This document shows, in pieces, positions 45,592-53,580 of a stretch of DNA of 64,000 nucleotides. The DNA is from Elusimicrobiota bacterium (GTDB lineage Bacteria; Elusimicrobiota; UBA5214; JBBAAG01), in assembly GCA_041658405.1 (NCBI GenBank), contig JBBAAG010000001.1, forward strand, positions 43,386 through 107,385, given 5' to 3'. A program made the translations under genes and the position numbers. Position 1 is the first letter of the stretch, and each line of letters begins with the position of its first letter. Below the pieces are notes generated by a model that was given only the letters and a program-made list of their open reading frames with translations, made no database searches and was not told where the DNA came from.

Positions 45592-46083
45592 ATGACGGAT
45601 AAAAAAGATCCCAAAACGTGTTTAATACTCATAGTCGATGACGACTCCACAGTTGTAGATTTCTTCAGTACTACAATGGAGATTGAAGGGTTTACTACAG
45701 AAATTGCGTTCGACGGCGGTGAAGCTTTGGCAAGTATGCGTAAGTCCAAACCTTCACTCATCCTGCTTGACCTCATGCTCCCAACCAAAGGCGGGTACGA
45801 AGTATTACGGGAAATGCAGTCGGATAAAGAACTTAAGGATATCCCGGTAATCGTTATTACCGCTAAGAGTTTGGAAGCTGAATCAAAAAAGTTTTTGGCG
45901 GAAGGCGTTAATATCCTTGAAATTATTGAGAAACCGATTAATCCTACCATCCTCGCGCATAAGGTTCATAAAGCTCTTAATACACTGACAATGGAAGATA
46001 AAATTATTGAACGCGGGAAAAAACAGCTTGAACAGCTTAACATTAAACCTGAACAGTTAAAGAAAAAGTTATGGGATTACTGA
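45592..46083 (+). CDS. Stand-alone response-regulator receiver (REC) domain protein
   Basis: LILIVDDDSTVVDFF...ILLDLMLPTKGGYEV...ITAKS is a CheY-like fold with conserved D/D/K. It has no output domain. Confidence 0.75.
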   Translation: MTDKKDPKTCLILIVDDDSTVVDFFSTTMEIEGFTTEIAFDGGEALASMRKSKPSLILLDLMLPTKGGYEVLREMQSDKELKDIPVIVITAKSLEAESKKFLAEGVNILEIIEKPINPTILAHKVHKALNTLTMEDKIIERGKKQLEQLNIKPEQLKKKLWDY

Positions 46084-46469
46084 AGGACCGTCTGATACTT
46101 GTCGTAGATGACGACCTTATGGTTGCTGACCTGTTCAAACTTACCGTTGAATCCGAAGGCCTCCGTGCGGAGGTTGCTGGTGACGGAAAAATTGCGTTAC
46201 AAAAAATTGCTGACCTCAAACCCGACCTCGTGATACTAGACCTTATGATGCCCAATATGGGCGGGTACGAGGTACTGCGTAAACTTCAAGCTGATCCTGA
46301 ACTAAATAAAATGCCGGTGATCGTTGCTACCGCTAAAATAATGGATCCCGGGACTAAGGCGGTGCTCACAGAAGGGGTTAATGTCCCTGAAATTATTGAA
46401 AAACCCGTGGATATTGAAGCGTTAATGAAACTTGTCCACCGTATGCTTCCGCAGGAGGGGAGGAAATGA
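46071..46469 (+). CDS. Stand-alone REC domain protein (tandem paralog)
   Basis: LILVVDDDLMVADLF...VILDLMMPNMGGYEV...ATAK is present. It overlaps the previous gene by 13 bp. Confidence 0.75.
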   Translation: MGLLKDRLILVVDDDLMVADLFKLTVESEGLRAEVAGDGKIALQKIADLKPDLVILDLMMPNMGGYEVLRKLQADPELNKMPVIVATAKIMDPGTKAVLTEGVNVPEIIEKPVDIEALMKLVHRMLPQEGRK

Positions 46470-46989: not shown

Positions 46990-47715
46990 ATGCCGGGATT
47001 CCTGAACTTTTTATTCAAAACATTAGTAACCATCCTCTTATTCCCGTTATCGATTGGCGCGGTATACGCACTGGCGCGGGTATTAACCGCTCCGCAGGCA
47101 CGGAATACCGCCTATTTCTGGTACCTCGCGGGGGGTACACTCGCGTATCCTGTCCTCCAAATCTTTATCCCGAAACCTATGTGGATATACACACTTGCGC
47201 ATGAGGTTACCCACGCGATTACGTCAATATTATTCGGGGGTAAAGTGTTAAGCATGAAAGTAACCGCCCGGGGGGGTAAGGTGGTGGTAACAAAATCCAA
47301 TTTTCTGGTAGCCCTGGCACCGTATGTATTCCCGTTCTACGCTGCAATACTTATGCTCCTATGGTATATTCTTACATTAACCTATGGCCCGGAGGTTGGA
47401 TTGTACTACCACTGGTTTTTACTGGTACTGGGATTACTTACAGGATTCCATCTCACACTTACATGGTACGCCATAAGTCTTGGCCAGACTGACCTAAAGC
47501 AAACAGGGGTTATGTTTTCATTATTCTTTGTGTTATTCACTAACTGCGTATTCATAGTGCTGATAATGAAAGCCGCAGCGCCGGGTAGTGTTGATACAAA
47601 AACTTTTTTTACAGACCTTGCAGCGTTCCAGGGAACCTTCTGGGTCTATGCGTACATCTACGCCATTAAACTATGGCAGTACATCATACTATTGACACGT
47701 TCCCTTACTCAATAA
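46990..47715 (+). CDS. Polytopic membrane zinc metalloprotease-like protein (HExxH within TM; Peptidase_M50B-like)
   Basis: YTLAHEVTHAITSILFGG has HExxH embedded in a hydrophobic segment. There are about 6 TM helices. Length is 241 aa. Confidence 0.5.
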   Translation: MPGFLNFLFKTLVTILLFPLSIGAVYALARVLTAPQARNTAYFWYLAGGTLAYPVLQIFIPKPMWIYTLAHEVTHAITSILFGGKVLSMKVTARGGKVVVTKSNFLVALAPYVFPFYAAILMLLWYILTLTYGPEVGLYYHWFLLVLGLLTGFHLTLTWYAISLGQTDLKQTGVMFSLFFVLFTNCVFIVLIMKAAAPGSVDTKTFFTDLAAFQGTFWVYAYIYAIKLWQYIILLTRSLTQ

Positions 47716-47720
47716 TAAGA

Positions 47721-48728
47721 TTACAAAATTGTATATTCCTCTGCGTGTATCGCCACAGGTTTTCCTATCGCGATTGATTCATTCGCGCGGTAACTCAATA
47801 ACGCGCCACGGATTGCTTTATTCACACCATTCGGCGGTTCTTTTTTGTTTAACACAGCATCCGCAAACGCATGAAGTTCGTACTCCCAGCCCTTATCACC
47901 CTTAGCAAGTTTTTCGGTAATAGTTTCCGTAGCGAAGCCATAAGCGTTAAGTTCAGTGAAGTCGTTGATATACACGGCCTTGCGGTTACTATAGATTTCA
48001 GTAACCTCCTTCGGCATTTTGTCATTACCTCTACTGGTGATAAGCGTAGTTCCCACAGATCCATCCGCAAAAGTTAGGGTTACACTCGCGGTATCCGGAA
48101 CCTCAACTTTTTCGTCAGTGATAAACACCCCGCCTGCAGCGTAGATTGTTATGGGTTCAGCGTTTATGAGTTCGCATAACAAGTCAAGGATATGCACGCC
48201 TTCCCCGATAATCCGTCCCCCTCCAAAAGTTTTATCGTGGAGCCAGTGGTTAGGTTTTGTTGTGTTCTGCAGACGGTGATAAATTATGCGTTTCGAGTTT
48301 TCAGTGGATAACATTTCCTTTGCTTTCCTCACCAGTGGAGCTAACCCGCGGTTATACCCAACAGTATATTTTATGCCAGATTTTTTCACGGCTTCCGCGA
48401 TACGCAGGCAGTCCGCGTAGTTTAACGCCATCGGCTTTTCGCAGACCACGTGTTTGCCCGCTTCCGCTGCTTTAACTGACAAGTCAGCGTGGGTATCATG
48501 ACGTGTGGTGATAAACACGGCATCAATGTTTTTGTCATCCAAAACTTTCTCCGCATCAGTTGTAGCGTACTCCGCGCCGGTAATATTTTTTAAATTATCC
48601 GCTGCGGGCTGTACAACATCGCAGGTAGCTATGACTTTGAATAATTGCGGTGCGTTCTTGATTATTGGTGAGTAAATCGTTTTCGCGAACCCTCCGCAGC
48701 CGATCATGCCGATCTTTAGTAATGACAT
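47721..48728 (-). CDS. Gfo/Idh/MocA-family NAD(P)-dependent oxidoreductase
   Basis: MSLLKIGMIGCGGFAKTIY is a Rossmann motif. A C-terminal alpha/beta domain is present. Length is 335 aa. Confidence 0.8.
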   Translation of the reverse strand: MSLLKIGMIGCGGFAKTIYSPIIKNAPQLFKVIATCDVVQPAADNLKNITGAEYATTDAEKVLDDKNIDAVFITTRHDTHADLSVKAAEAGKHVVCEKPMALNYADCLRIAEAVKKSGIKYTVGYNRGLAPLVRKAKEMLSTENSKRIIYHRLQNTTKPNHWLHDKTFGGGRIIGEGVHILDLLCELINAEPITIYAAGGVFITDEKVEVPDTASVTLTFADGSVGTTLITSRGNDKMPKEVTEIYSNRKAVYINDFTELNAYGFATETITEKLAKGDKGWEYELHAFADAVLNKKEPPNGVNKAIRGALLSYRANESIAIGKPVAIHAEEYTIL

Positions 48729-48828
48729 AAAGTATAAAACTCCTTCTCCAAATATTTTGTGTTTCCAGATACAATTATACTATTTTTGCTCATTCTATGA
48801 ATATCAGCTTGCTACCCATATCGTACAA

Positions 48829-49767
48829 TCAACTTAAGAAAATATTTTCATTGTGCCAAGAAAGGTAGTTTATTGAAGGCTTATTCTTTTCTTCGGGTAC
48901 ACTTTTTAATGAACTACCATGCACTGCATAATAATCTCTTCCATTCTCAAACTCCTCACGAATTCTTCTGCTGACTTCAACTTTTAAATCCGGTGTTATA
49001 GTAATATATCCCGTATCAAATAGCTTATGCAGATCCGAACGTAGTAATAAACCATTGGTGATTATATTGGGGCCGTTTTTAGAAATTGGCTGTATATGTG
49101 CCGCTTCTAAAACAGGTAACGTTCTTTCACCAGTAATCGCACATTTTTTATAATAAATATCTGTTACTATTAACCTGAATCCACCCTGACCTAATCTAGA
49201 TTTCGTTAGATAAGGATTTCCATATATTGCGGTCGAATCTGGCATTTCGTATTTACTTATTGTAAGTAAGGGATTGTATTTCACTAATCTTTCTGAAATC
49301 ATTTTAAACAAATTAAATCCTTCTGCTTCTTCAGTCTTATATATTTTTCCTCTAACTATATTTGAACTCCAACTTTGTGGTATATCAATCCAATCTTCTC
49401 TTTTAAAGAAAAATGGTGTTGAAAGCACGTTACATACTATTGATAGAGTGTGAATATTTTTGTTGTTAATTTCTTTGTTATATTTTTTTAAAACTGGTAG
49501 AAAATCATCTAATGCTTTTACACCATTTTTTTCTCCAAACGTTTCCCATGCTAATGCAATTGGAATTATAGTACTTGTTTCAAAAAAGCCACCACCAACA
49601 ATAAAATCTAATGGGCTATGCAATTTAAAAAGAAAAAGTTCTTTTGAAGACAATGCTTTAAAGGAGGTTAGTGATGGCTGCCAAAAATTTACTTCGTCGG
49701 GTAATGGATTTTGAGATGACAAATATTCAAACCATCTATTATCTGTTACACCTATCCAAATTTTCAC
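48829..49767 (-). CDS. HNH-family endonuclease (HNH_2-type) with N-terminal PUA/EVE-like domain; putative type IV (modification-dependent) restriction enzyme
   Basis: The C-terminus CAITGERTLPVLEAAHIQPISKNGPNIITNGLLLRSDLHKLFDTGYITITPD is the C...C...AHI.P....N.GL.L....H..FD.G pattern of HNH_2 nucleases. The N-terminal approximately 200 aa (KIWIGVTDNRWFEYL...FLFKLHSPLDFIVGGGFFE) resembles PUA-like/EVE folds. Confidence 0.65.
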   Translation of the reverse strand: MKIWIGVTDNRWFEYLSSQNPLPDEVNFWQPSLTSFKALSSKELFLFKLHSPLDFIVGGGFFETSTIIPIALAWETFGEKNGVKALDDFLPVLKKYNKEINNKNIHTLSIVCNVLSTPFFFKREDWIDIPQSWSSNIVRGKIYKTEEAEGFNLFKMISERLVKYNPLLTISKYEMPDSTAIYGNPYLTKSRLGQGGFRLIVTDIYYKKCAITGERTLPVLEAAHIQPISKNGPNIITNGLLLRSDLHKLFDTGYITITPDLKVEVSRRIREEFENGRDYYAVHGSSLKSVPEEKNKPSINYLSWHNENIFLS

Positions 49768-49964
49768 ATATTCACCTTTTTACTTTAAAGATTTAGATAA
49801 TATGATAATTCAAACGAGGCTTAACTTAACAAAAACCGATTACGGGCGCGATTACTAGCTTTTAAATTAATGATACTAAACAACAACTTATCAATCAATA
49901 AATATGTTTATGTTGTTATCATCATCTTTTTTGTATAATTGTAAGTATATTCGGATATAAAGAA

Positions 49965-51962
49965 GTGGATAAATATCAAGAAATAATTATGAAAAGATCT
50001 TACTATTCTGACTCTATTGAGCGTTTTCTTAATACAAATACTGACGAAATTCTTGGAAAACTAACAAAAAACAGCGATTTTGATTTAGGACAAGCTCAAA
50101 GAGATTCATGGATAGAAGAAATTAGTATTTTAAAGTCAGTTCTTTCTTATTATACGGGCGCGATATATTTTGAATATTCTATCCCTCGAATGGGGAAACG
50201 CATAGACGTAGTACTTCTTATTGATTCCATAATCTTCGTTCTTGAATTTAAGATTGGCGAAAAACAATTTACTTCATATGCAATAGACCAAGTATATGAT
50301 TACGCACTAGACTTAAAGAATTTTCACGAAACGAGTCATAACCAACCTATTGCACCAATTCTCATAGCAACAGGCGTTAAAAATTGTGATTTAGCTGATC
50401 CAATAATACGCATAGATGATAATTTGTTTTCACCTATACGAACCAATGATAAATTTTTAAATACTGTCATTAAATATGTTCTACAATTTTCTCCCGAACA
50501 CAAAATAGACCAACTGGCATGGGAAAAAGGGAGATATTGCCCTACACCTACCATTATAGAAGCAGCTATGGCCCTCTATAATAGCCATTCCGTTAATGAT
50601 ATATCTCGAAACGATGCTAGCGCAAAAAATCTGAGCATAACGTCAGAATCGATATCAGAAATTATTAGTTATTCAAAAACGAAATACAGAAAATCTATAT
50701 GTTTTGTAACCGGCGTACCTGGGGCCGGGAAAACTTTAGTTGGACTTAATATTGCAACCAAATATATTGATAAATCGAGTGATCTCCATAGTGTATTTCT
50801 ATCCGGAAACGGTCCGTTGGTATCAATACTACGGGAAGCTCTTGCACGTGATAAGGTTCAACAATCAAAAGAACGTGGAATACGAATAAGAAAAGGTATT
50901 GCAATGAGTGAAGTAAAGATGTTTATTCAAAATGTGCACAATTTTCGTGATGATTGTCTTGATAACTTAAAACCCCCATTGGAACATGTTGTTCTTTTTG
51001 ATGAAGCGCAACGCGCGTGGAATAAAGAACAGACAACAAATTTTATGCGTCGAAAAAAGAATAAGCCTAATTTTAACCGTTCAGAATCAGAATTTCTAAT
51101 TTCATGCTTGGATCGACATACAGATTGGGCAGTTATCGTATGTCTAGTTGGTGGAGGTCAGGAAATTAATACAGGTGAGGCAGGAATTAGTGAATGGTTA
51201 GCATCCTTGAATAACTCGTTTAAAGATTGGGATATTTATATATCCGCCCATCTTACCGATAGCGAATATAACACAAATGACGTTCTAGATAAATTAAAAT
51301 CACGAATAAATATTAACTTAAAAAATGACTTACATCTTGCAGTATCAATGCGTTCTTTCCGAGCTGAACATGTTTCGTTATTAGTAAAGCAATTACTCGA
51401 TCTTGAAAATGCCGAGGCATATAGAACTTTGATAGAAATTCAGGAAAAGTATCCTATTGTTTTGACTCGTAACTTGGCTAAAGCAAAACAGTGGCTCAGG
51501 TCGAAAGCACGAGGTTCAGAACGTTATGGCCTTGTCGTGTCTTCTCAAGCCGAACGACTAAAACCGTATGCAATAGATGTTAAATCACCAATGGAGCCAA
51601 TTCATTGGTTTCTTGATGGAAAAGAAGATGTTCGTTCTTCCTATTATTTAGAAGACGTTGCAACAGAGTTTGATATCCAAGGCCTCGAACTTGATTGGGC
51701 AGGGATTATCTGGGATGCCGATTTCCGACATTCAAATGAAGGTTGGAACCACTGGTCTTTTTGCGGTGATAGATGGAATCACATTAGGAAACCAGAAAGA
51801 CAAAGTTACCAAAAGAATGCCTATCGCGTACTTTTAACTCGTGCACGCCAAGGAATGGTGATTGTTGTACCAGAAGGAGATGCTGGTGATCCAACTCGAA
51901 AAAAAGAATATTATGACCCTACTTATGAATATTTAAAGGAAATTGGTTTTACGGAGATATAA
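49965..51962 (+). CDS. PD-(D/E)xK nuclease fused to DUF2075-type SF1-helicase-like P-loop ATPase (Schlafen/Nhi-like nuclease-helicase)
   Basis: The N-terminus [22 protein letters not shown] has the D...ExK nuclease motif. Walker A is [13 protein letters not shown] and Walker B is VVLFDEAQ. The C-terminus [13 protein letters not shown] is a helicase motif VI-like. An alternative start is the ATG at 49989. Confidence 0.65.
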
Positions 51963-51965
51963 AAC

Positions 51966-52778
51966 ATGTTTGACAACAACGTCCTCTTTGCATTCGGGCT
52001 GACCTTGCTCGCAGGGTTATCTACCGGGATAGGTAGTATCCTGGCGTTACTCTCAAAAAAGGTTAACCCCAAATATTTATCCGCAGCATTAGGTTTCTCC
52101 GCAGGGGTTATGCTCTACGTATCATTCGTAGAAATCCTGGCTGACGCACGGAAATCGTTAGTTGTTCTCTATGGTAACAAGCCGGGGTTCTGGATTGCAA
52201 CCGCTGCTTTTTTCGCGGGGATCGGGTTAATCGCATTGATTGATAAACTAGTTCCCGAGTATGAGAACCCGCATGAACTTAAGAATATTAGTGATAAAAC
52301 TGATGGCACTGCACCAGCCTGTGATCCGCGGTTAATGCGGGTGGGAGTGTTCACCGCACTGGCGATCGGTATACATAATTTCCCTGAGGGTATTGCCACG
52401 TTTATCAGTGCGTTACACACACCCGCTTTGGGGATAAGTATTGCCGTGGCGGTTGCTATCCACAACATCCCGGAAGGCCTTGTGGTATCGGTACCGATAT
52501 ACTGCGCAACAGGTAGTAGAAGAAAAGCGTTTATTTACTCGTTTCTTTCCGGGTTATCAGAACCCGTTGGCGCGATTATTGGTTACCTGTTGTTACGCAC
52601 ATTCCTTAACCCTGCAATGTTCGGTATAATTTTTGCTCTCGTAGCGGGAATTATGGTATATATTTCTCTGGATGAACTGTTCCCCACTGCGGAAAAGTAT
52701 GGGGAACATCATATCGTTATCACCGGCTTTATTGCCGGGATGGCGGTTATGGCGGTAAGTTTATTGTTATTGATGTAA
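51966..52778 (+). CDS. zupT: ZIP-family zinc transporter
   Basis: HNFPEGIAT and HNIPEGL histidine-rich TM motifs are present. There are 8 TM helices. Length is 270 aa. Confidence 0.8.
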
Positions 52779-52860
52779 ACTCTTCCTCCCTTGCGGATAA
52801 TGACGTTAAAAAAGTATACTTATGTCACTCTAAGATGAACGGGATGGGGATATTTAATAT

Positions 52861-53580
52861 ATGATAAAAACCGTAGGGTTAACAAAACAGTTCAACCGCA
52901 CATTAGCCGTGGATAATCTTAACCTCGAGATCGCGGATGGCGAAATTTTTGCCTACCTCGGCCCGAACGGCGCGGGGAAAACTACTACCCTGAAAATGCT
53001 GCTGGGGTTACTAAAACCTACTAAAGGATACGCTTTGGTAGGCGGGCTTGACCCGCAAAAAGATCCAATGAAGGTTAAGCATATGACCGGCCTTGTGCCG
53101 GAGTACCCGTACTTATACCGTAAACTCACAGGGTTTGAGTACCTTAACTTTGTTGCTGACCTTTATCATTTACCAAAAAACGATATTGACCGTATCCCCG
53201 AAGTACTGAAAACGTTTGGGCTCGAGGATTGGATGTATGACATGGTGGAATCATACTCTCATGGGATGCAGCAAAAACTTGCGCTCTCCGCGATTGTCCT
53301 GCGCCAACCGAAGTTTATATTCCTGGATGAACCACTGATCGGGCTTGATCCTCTTAGCCAGCGTAAGATGCGCGAGATACTAGTTGGGCTAGCAAAAAAG
53401 GGTGCGACAATTCTTATCTGCACACACATCCTTGAGATTGCAGAGAAAGTGTGTACCCGGGTAGGGATTATTAATAAAGGACAGTTGACGCATATAGGTA
53501 CTATCGACGAACTACGGAAGAAAGCTGATACCGACGCAGCAAGCGGGCTGGAAGATATTTTCTTCAAACTTACGGAATGA
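52861..53580 (+). CDS. ABC transporter ATP-binding protein
   Basis: Walker A is GPNGAGKTT, the signature is SHGMQQKL and Walker B is FIFLDEP. Confidence 0.8.
   Translation: MIKTVGLTKQFNRTLAVDNLNLEIADGEIFAYLGPNGAGKTTTLKMLLGLLKPTKGYALVGGLDPQKDPMKVKHMTGLVPEYPYLYRKLTGFEYLNFVADLYHLPKNDIDRIPEVLKTFGLEDWMYDMVESYSHGMQQKLALSAIVLRQPKFIFLDEPLIGLDPLSQRKMREILVGLAKKGATILICTHILEIAEKVCTRVGIINKGQLTHIGTIDELRKKADTDAASGLEDIFFKLTE

Follow-up and report, generated by a model that had tools for sequence, protein, structure and literature searches.

Does the 665-aa protein encoded in this 64,000-nucleotide stretch of Elusimicrobiota DNA (hereafter the window) act on its own against phages, and to which of the known nuclease-helicase families does it belong? 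The initial annotation had read it as a PD-(D/E)xK nuclease fused to an SF1-like ATPase of the DUF2075 family, a single polypeptide resembling the anti-phage enzyme Nhi, which sits in an AT-rich island next to an HNH nuclease with which it might act jointly. The gene and the parts predicted within its product are as follows, all on the + strand:

49965-51962, +: complete nuclease-helicase gene, 665 aa, GTG start; PD-(D/E)xK plus DUF2075; Nhi-like / PDC-S41
49992-50534, +: PD-(D/E)xK (restriction-endonuclease-fold) nuclease domain, aa ~10-190
50172-50174, 50205-50207, 50244-50246 and 50250-50252, +: predicted catalytic residues E70, D81, E94 and K96, respectively, of the N-terminal nuclease
50520-50579, +: strongly conserved inter-domain motif, aa 186-205, from W186 on
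50691-51872, +: P-loop ATPase domain of the DUF2075 / Schlafen group-3 helicase type (PF09848), aa 243-636
50712-50735, +: Walker A, G250-T257
51000-51005, +: Walker B, D346-E347
51159-51161, +: GGGQE motif around Q399
51825-51854, +: arginine-rich motif, R621-G630

The motifs quoted in the initial annotation were all found where it had placed them, namely, the nuclease string at aa 77-96 (with D81, E94, and K96), GVPGAGKT at aa 250-257, VVLFDEAQ at aa 342-349, and TRARQG at aa 625-630. A 100% identical protein from an Elusimicrobiota MAG is present in the database, where it is named just "DUF2075 domain-containing protein." As to the N terminus, an alternative ATG start at 49989 (M9) would yield a protein of 657 aa, and a start-codon comparison revealed that most homologues, which are 658 aa long, begin in register with M9 of the window protein. 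Because some 665-aa homologues carry a similar extension of 7-8 residues (MNxxQKxI), with no internal Met at the M9 position, we consider the start codon ambiguous.

Matches to known families were, by sequence comparison, far above chance: PF09848 scored at E=2.4e-83, the PADLOC profile PDC-S41 at E=5e-290, and the database was found to hold >8000 homologues. The PF09848 match covers profile positions 1-353 of 354. In homologues 35-50% identical to the window protein, residues G250, P252, G253, K256, and T257 of Walker A are invariant, as are D346, E347, Q349, R350, Q399, R463, R502, R621, R626, and R628; the strings GVPGAGKT and DEAQ are likewise invariant among homologues. A profile search of the PDB returned a weak match to the helicase region of SLFN11/SLFN5 (E about 5e-5), other weak P-loop matches in PDB sequences being to a Zot-like protein and to zeta toxin; neither single-sequence nor profile searches of PDB sequences returned a close relative with a solved structure. 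The C-terminal domain is thus predicted to be an SF1-type P-loop motor of the DUF2075 family in which Walker A, Walker B, and the arginine motifs (TRARQG included) are all intact, as had been claimed.

While the profile search, proposed in the initial annotation as a check, bore out DUF2075, it did not do so for the nuclease. When searched both within the whole protein and as an isolated N-terminal domain, aa 1-240 gave nothing significant in Pfam, the best hit being HSDR_N at E=0.099. We therefore modelled aa 1-245 structurally with AF2, using a 95-sequence alignment that covers two clades, including the Bacillus Nhi-like proteins. The resulting model (mean pLDDT 83.3, pTM 0.76, core ~90) shows the canonical fold order alpha-beta-beta-beta-alpha-beta, with D81 at the beginning of strand 2 and E94-x-K96 within strand 3, and all of E70, D81, E94, and K96 are invariant in both clades. 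The spacing of the site is the classical D-x12-ExK. Although not recognized by Pfam, the claimed nuclease core is therefore well reflected in the model, which predicts a PD-(D/E)xK fold with an intact E70/D81/E94/K96 site. The top structural matches of this domain in Foldseek were Can2 and Cdn1, both CRISPR-ancillary nucleases; SLFN was absent among the top 50 Foldseek matches.

Between the two domains lies the conserved motif that begins at W186. Throughout the 95-sequence alignment, the Bacillus Nhi-like clade included, its residues P195, E199, and A201 do not vary, and W186, Y191, P193, and P195 show conservation of 90% or more in alignment A2; the local pLDDT of the motif is just 51-65. 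An AF2 model of the full-length protein, made with 40 close homologues, was poor (pLDDT 60.7, with the helicase part at low confidence) and was therefore replaced by the N-domain model from the deeper alignment. A Foldseek search with the full-length model gave no significant match.

With both domains in place, we turned to the family to which the protein might be assigned. The PADLOC profile PDC-S41 aligns with aa 9-665 of the window protein over profile positions 1-653 of 657. PDC systems are 145 phage defence candidates in PADLOC whose members are embedded in BREX, DISARM, or Type I RM loci (10.1101/2024.01.29.577857); the name "PDC-S41" appeared in none of the paper texts and supplements that were searched. 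A tblastn search of plasmids recovered 28% identical full-length homologues on megaplasmids of the Bacillus cereus group. One of these, the B. cereus plasmid protein WP_246963541.1 (611 aa), aligns with aa 14-644 of the window protein at 28% identity (E=5e-57). Over the first 399 residues of the verified BcNhi-like protein, those available, the same protein shows 89% identity, and it matches PDC-S41 at E=2.3e-115, as compared with just 2e-6 for the PADLOC Nhi model. Compared directly, the window protein matches the 399-aa BcNhi-like fragment at E=2e-38. BcNhi-like, the Nhi-like protein of Bacillus cereus FSL H8-0482 (611 aa), is given as a verified defence protein by Millman et al. 2022 (10.1101/2022.05.11.491447, Table S2), whose Nhi-like family table already includes Elusimicrobia genomes. 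Since WP_246963541.1 is both a near relative of BcNhi-like and a PDC-S41 match, PDC-S41 is in effect the Nhi-like family, and sequence similarity places the window protein in this already catalogued and partly characterized group.

The likeness to BcNhi-like extends from end to end. Both are single-gene systems with an N-terminal PD-(D/E)xK domain, the conserved linker motif, and a DUF2075 ATPase; they can be aligned over ~630 residues, have the same catalytic and Walker residues, and both match PDC-S41. However, the two are just 27-28% identical, the window protein is ~50 aa longer than the Bacillus protein, and their PDC-S41 scores differ (961 bits versus 384 bits): the window protein sits in a much larger clade which spans many phyla, is conserved to an unusual degree, and dominates the PDC-S41 model.

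The comparison with Nhi itself, drawn in the initial annotation, was apt as regards domain logic, though not as regards sequence. Nhi of Staphylococcus epidermidis (SERP2475; Bari et al. 2022), an autonomous anti-phage enzyme, likewise unites in a single chain an N-terminal PD-(D/E)xK domain and an SF1 helicase that overlaps DUF2075. Yet the PADLOC Nhi model matches the window protein just at E=1.3e-6 and within aa 235-365, the P-loop region, and we therefore rejected membership in Nhi sensu stricto; the protein belongs with the Nhi-like family instead. Nhi and Nhi-like were described as having no sequence identity (Millman et al. 2022, 10.1101/2022.05.11.491447), and phage escape from the two differs as well, mapping to replication-machinery proteins for Nhi and to a DNA methylase for Nhi-like (10.1101/2022.08.27.505566).

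Group III Schlafens (SLFN11, SLFN5, SLFN13) share with the window protein a C-terminal ATPase in PF09848, as also visible in the weak profile match to SLFN11/5; they have the same layout of nuclease plus motor and are antiviral. Their nuclease, in contrast, is a two-lobed Schlafen RNase with an Ex4ExK motif, while that of the window protein has the classical PD-(D/E)xK fold of the DNase type; in Pfam, the AlbA_2 (Schlafen RNase) profile did not match the window protein. Upx, Hna, DdmD, and McrBC represent other single-chain or paired combinations of PD-(D/E)xK nuclease and NTPase which differ in domain order and in their need for partners, and also in motor family (SF2 in Hna, an AAA+ GTPase in McrB). 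None of the PADLOC models of these four systems matches the window protein.

How the family is distributed bears on whether it travels as a gene of its own. Grouped at 50% identity, the database homologues with E<=1e-3 make up 5124 clusters. When one genome was scanned for each species, 153 relatives were recovered, and the best 80 of these 153 loci were analysed together with the window, 81 loci in all. The best 80 share 63-73% identity with the window protein and come from at least 13 phyla, including Nitrospirota, Bacteroidota, Acidobacteriota, Chloroflexota, Planctomycetota, Omnitrophota, and Elusimicrobiota, with further representatives in Saccharibacteria, Dependentiae, Cyanobacteria, Desulfobacterota, Alphaproteobacteria, and Kiritimatiellae. 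Other Elusimicrobiota are 68-71% identical to the window protein, as against 73% in Nitrospirae; relatives from the same phylum are thus no closer, which points to horizontal transfer. Carriage on viral contigs is rare, with 11 relatives in IMG/VR, mostly close to contig ends, and one GenBank phage record.

To look at gene neighbourhoods, we called the ORFs of all 81 loci and then clustered them. A conserved housekeeping context for the homologues, which the initial annotation had named as a point that would weaken a defence role, did not emerge: no neighbour family was present in more than 13 of the 81 loci, and those that recurred were generic (response regulators, ABC ATPases, M1 peptidase). 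Among the 135 immediate neighbours, no Pfam family was seen more than twice; many of these neighbours are housekeeping genes, e.g., for tRNA synthetases or cytochrome bd oxidase. In 56 of 61 loci, the gene had a lower GC content than its flanks, the median difference being -5.9 points and the largest about -20. Given the lack of a conserved neighbour and this lower GC, the gene behaves as a single-gene system that has spread horizontally; it is a module that stands alone, has been transferred widely, and lies outside any conserved housekeeping operon. The defence-island signal around the homologues is weak, resting on the few neighbours that match PADLOC models (PDC-S05, PDC-S07, PDC-S24, DRT helicase, SoFic, and GajB/UvrD-like).

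In the window, the gene shares a small low-GC islet with one other gene, the HNH nuclease:

48750-52050, no strand: low-GC islet of ~3.3 kb with just two genes (HNH and nuclease-helicase), from the GC profile
47721-48728, -: Gfo/Idh/MocA-type oxidoreductase gene, islet flank
48829-49767, -: HNH_2 endonuclease gene, 312 aa, divergent from the nuclease-helicase gene; PF13391 at E=1.8e-12, PADLOC HNH models
49768-49964, no strand: AT-rich divergent intergenic region between the HNH and nuclease-helicase genes, 197 bp, GC 0.27-0.29; presumed site of both promoters
51966-52778, +: ZIP/ZupT-type transporter gene, islet flank

Both the AT-rich island and its HNH gene are as the initial annotation had described them. 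Window GC falls from ~0.46 to 0.27-0.38 between ~48750 and ~51450 and exceeds 0.45 again by ~52050, and the divergent neighbour encodes an HNH_2 protein. Signs of how the islet arrived were sought with little return: flanking direct repeats did not exceed chance level, no integrase was found at the islet, and there is no tRNA closer than 59798. A search for an empty site, in which metagenomes were scanned with the adjacent ZupT protein, gave relatives of at most 68% identity, none of them syntenic, and so turned up no uninterrupted site; a conserved partnership with ZupT was rejected. Rfam gave no match across 47000-53500, and a scan for promoters and terminators gave counts not above shuffled expectation, the sigma-70-like matches in the 197-bp intergenic region included.

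In the PDB, the HNH part of the neighbour is matched by 6yex, a 309-aa "HNH endonuclease," and by TagI (6ghs), in each case within the HNH region; we take both to be modification-dependent restriction enzymes with an N-terminal reader domain of the PUA superfamily. The neighbour is probably a modification-dependent (Type IV-like) restriction enzyme itself; its N-terminal 190 aa had no match in Pfam or PDB sequences. An HNH_2-type gene adjoins the PDC-S41 gene in 3 of the 81 loci, on varying sides and in varying orientation. In another Elusimicrobiota MAG (locus L007), the PDC-S41 gene is followed immediately by an HNH orthologue of 43% identity, and in locus L067 a third HNH_2-type gene lies directly upstream. 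By a rough estimate, this frequency exceeds chance for so rare a family, and it is far too low for an obligatory partnership. We therefore consider the HNH gene an island neighbour and no obligate partner, such that the suggested joint action of the two genes gained no support.

What, then, might the protein do? Considering its relatives, we think it likely that the product of the gene is an anti-phage nuclease-helicase that belongs to the Nhi-like family (PDC-S41) and acts alone as a single polypeptide; in this family, phage resistance is known from distant members. PsNhi-like conferred >20-fold protection against 7 of 11 coliphages (Ragucci et al. 2025, 10.1101/2025.07.10.664194), and the purified protein degraded genomic DNA of T7, SECphi17, and SPO1 while E. 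coli and plasmid DNA were spared (10.1101/2025.07.10.664194). Phages escape BcNhi-like through loss of a DNA methylase, suggesting that methylated DNA sensitizes a phage to Nhi-like (10.1101/2022.08.27.505566). By extension from these distant homologues, the motor domain would load onto invading DNA or translocate along it, and the nuclease would then degrade phage DNA, telling it from host DNA by a structural or chemical feature and leaving the host chromosome intact. Candidate features would be DNA methylation or another modification, or else replication-type DNA ends and single-stranded DNA. The HNH enzyme next to it would represent a second, separate defence gene that shares this small acquired islet.

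Some observations run against a defence role. The verified BcNhi-like is just about 28% identical; PDC-S41 formally stands among the 145 PADLOC candidates; immediate neighbours elsewhere are mostly ordinary housekeeping genes and not known defence genes; and identity between phyla, at 63-77%, is higher than usual for a defence gene engaged in an arms race.

Other readings of the locus were weighed, and we regard all three of them as unlikely. The two genes might work just together, with the DUF2075 protein as the ATP-dependent motor of a modification-reading HNH enzyme, comparable to McrB-McrC or to DUF2075 plus McaZI (Lutz et al. 2019). Their divergent arrangement within one 3.3-kb islet would suit such a pair, as would the HNH orthologue in L007 and the HNH_2-type gene upstream in L067, the DUF2075 NTPases that Lutz 2019 saw beside modification-dependent enzymes (PMC6765204), and the escape from Nhi-like by phage methylase loss (10.1101/2022.08.27.505566). 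That an HNH_2 neighbour is present in just 3 of 81 loci, on either side and in either orientation, that the DUF2075 protein has a complete nuclease site of its own, and that BcNhi-like was verified as a single gene make this arrangement very improbable. The nuclease site also speaks to abortive infection of the Schlafen-11 kind, in which the DUF2075 domain would sense phage single-stranded DNA or replication intermediates, and would thereby activate the N-terminal nuclease against tRNA or other RNA of the host, so that growth is halted instead of phage DNA being destroyed. The D-x12-ExK pattern, as opposed to the SLFN Ex4ExK motif, argues against it, and so do the lack of an AlbA_2/Schlafen RNase profile match, the top 50 Foldseek matches without SLFN, and the direct degradation of phage DNA by purified PsNhi-like (10.1101/2025.07.10.664194). 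We leave this mechanism a slim chance, seeing that the C-terminal domain shares a Pfam family with the SLFN11/5 helicase, that single-stranded DNA bound to the SLFN11 helicase domain activates the SLFN11 tRNase (PMC13056530), and that two CRISPR-ancillary nucleases, Can2 and Cdn1, head the structural matches.

Similarly improbable is an enzyme with no role in defence, be it a nuclease-helicase that serves repair or recombination in the manner of Dna2/AddAB or one that maintains an integrated element. Its high conservation across phyla (63-77% identity), the many housekeeping neighbours, and the few copies on plasmids and viral contigs would be compatible with such a function. They are countered by a sporadic distribution that does not follow taxonomy, by non-conserved synteny, by a GC content that is lower than in the host at 56 of 61 loci, and by an islet with no integrase, tRNA, or repeats; beyond these, there is the homology to proteins with demonstrated anti-phage activity and the recovery of PDC-S41 by PADLOC guilt-by-embedding within RM/BREX/DISARM loci (10.1101/2024.01.29.577857).

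For the preferred reading as a stand-alone Nhi-like enzyme, the conceptual gain is small, as the family is already in PADLOC and its distant members have genetic and biochemical support. Its use is more practical: by linking the PDC-S41 candidate to the experimentally verified Nhi-like family, it makes PDC-S41 matches readable as Nhi-like. Moreover, structural and conservation evidence singles out E70, D81, E94, and K96, together with the conserved linker motif, as direct targets for mutagenesis.

A further idea, which is conceivable yet in our view rather doubtful, is that the multi-phylum PDC-S41 clade might constitute a previously unrecognized class of modification-dependent (Type IV-like) restriction enzyme, a single polypeptide driven by an SF1 motor that would read methylation or another modification of phage DNA. 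The clade shows unusual conservation (63-77% identity across at least 13 phyla) and a composition consistently AT-richer than that of its hosts. If true, such modification dependence would explain both the methylase-loss escapers of BcNhi-like and the occasional pairing with putative modification-dependent HNH enzymes. Since it is a single-gene module that is strongly conserved and has been transferred very widely, the clade would be convenient for asking whether Nhi-like enzymes are modification-dependent.

Within the multi-phylum clade of the PADLOC candidate model PDC-S41, which the 665-aa nuclease-helicase of the window matches end to end, identity is 63 to 77% across at least 13 phyla (L001 to L080, the best 80 of the 153 related loci), and similarity among these proteins departs from taxonomy. 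Such strong conservation is unusual in a defense gene. The GC content of the PDC-S41 gene is lower than that of its flanks in 56/61 loci, with a gap of up to 20 points. Among the best-conserved segments of the window protein is a motif lying between its two domains, in which P195, E199, and A201 are invariant, the Bacillus clade included; structure prediction gives this segment low confidence.

Window 50520-50579 (aa 186-205), inter-domain motif beginning with W, by residue conservation

The start codon of the gene is ambiguous (window 49965-49989). GTG at 49965 would add an 8-residue extension similar to that of some 665-aa homologues, whereas ATG at 49989 agrees with the start of the 658-aa form, which is the majority among homologues.

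Inspection of the genes surrounding PDC-S41 homologues revealed several nucleotide-pyrophosphatase and DUF2075 neighbors, listed here with the L081 locus, a Bacillus cereus plasmid (NZ_CP095378.1) carrying a distant Nhi-like orthologue.

L007:1600-6372 and L014:7221-11974 (also in L036, L041, L049, and L072), three-gene cassette, genes just upstream of the match
L081:952-4544, minus strand, MazG/HNH_4/DUF2075 operon, located upstream of the Nhi-like orthologue at a distance of ∼3.5 kb
L011:9575-9994 and L053:9614-9943, small NUDIX protein matching PADLOC candidate PDC-S07 (E=1.2e-48)

The cassette, common to six loci from four phyla, begins with a MazG-like pyrophosphohydrolase (PF12643, ∼115 aa), followed by a DUF2075 paralogue of 729 to 804 aa and then by the 658-aa PDC-S41 gene. 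The paralogue combines a PD-(D/E)xK-like N terminus and DUF2075 with a C-terminal Peptidase_S24 (LexA-like) domain, and no dedicated PADLOC model matched this S24-fused protein. The MazG plus DUF2075 theme recurs in a distant phylum, as the L081 operon encodes a PRA-PH/MazG-like pyrophosphohydrolase, a 350-aa HNH_4 protein, and a second DUF2075 protein of 637 aa. The NUDIX protein is a further nucleotide-pyrophosphatase neighbor; in both L011 and L053, its gene precedes the PDC-S41 gene by 6 to 12 nt.

In the window itself, the following features lie upstream of the nuclease-helicase gene.

45592-46469, plus strand, pair of successive ORFs of 163 and 132 aa, each resembling a stand-alone response-regulator receiver
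48829-49767, minus strand, HNH_2 protein (312 aa)

PDB 6yex and TagI (6ghs) have HNH domains that the C-terminal nuclease of the HNH_2 protein resembles. The N-terminal 190 aa of the HNH_2 protein are conserved (43% identical in L007) and had no match among Pfam models or PDB sequences; the protein is possibly a modification-dependent restriction enzyme whose reader domain is uncharacterized.

Downstream, the ZIP/ZupT-type transporter gene begins 4 nt past the nuclease-helicase stop codon (window 51962-51966), with no terminator-like site in between. None of 80 metagenome ZupT loci had a DUF2075 or HNH gene nearby, and the ZupT adjacency is therefore incidental. The two receiver-like ORFs, just upstream of the nuclease-helicase region, overlap by 13 nt.
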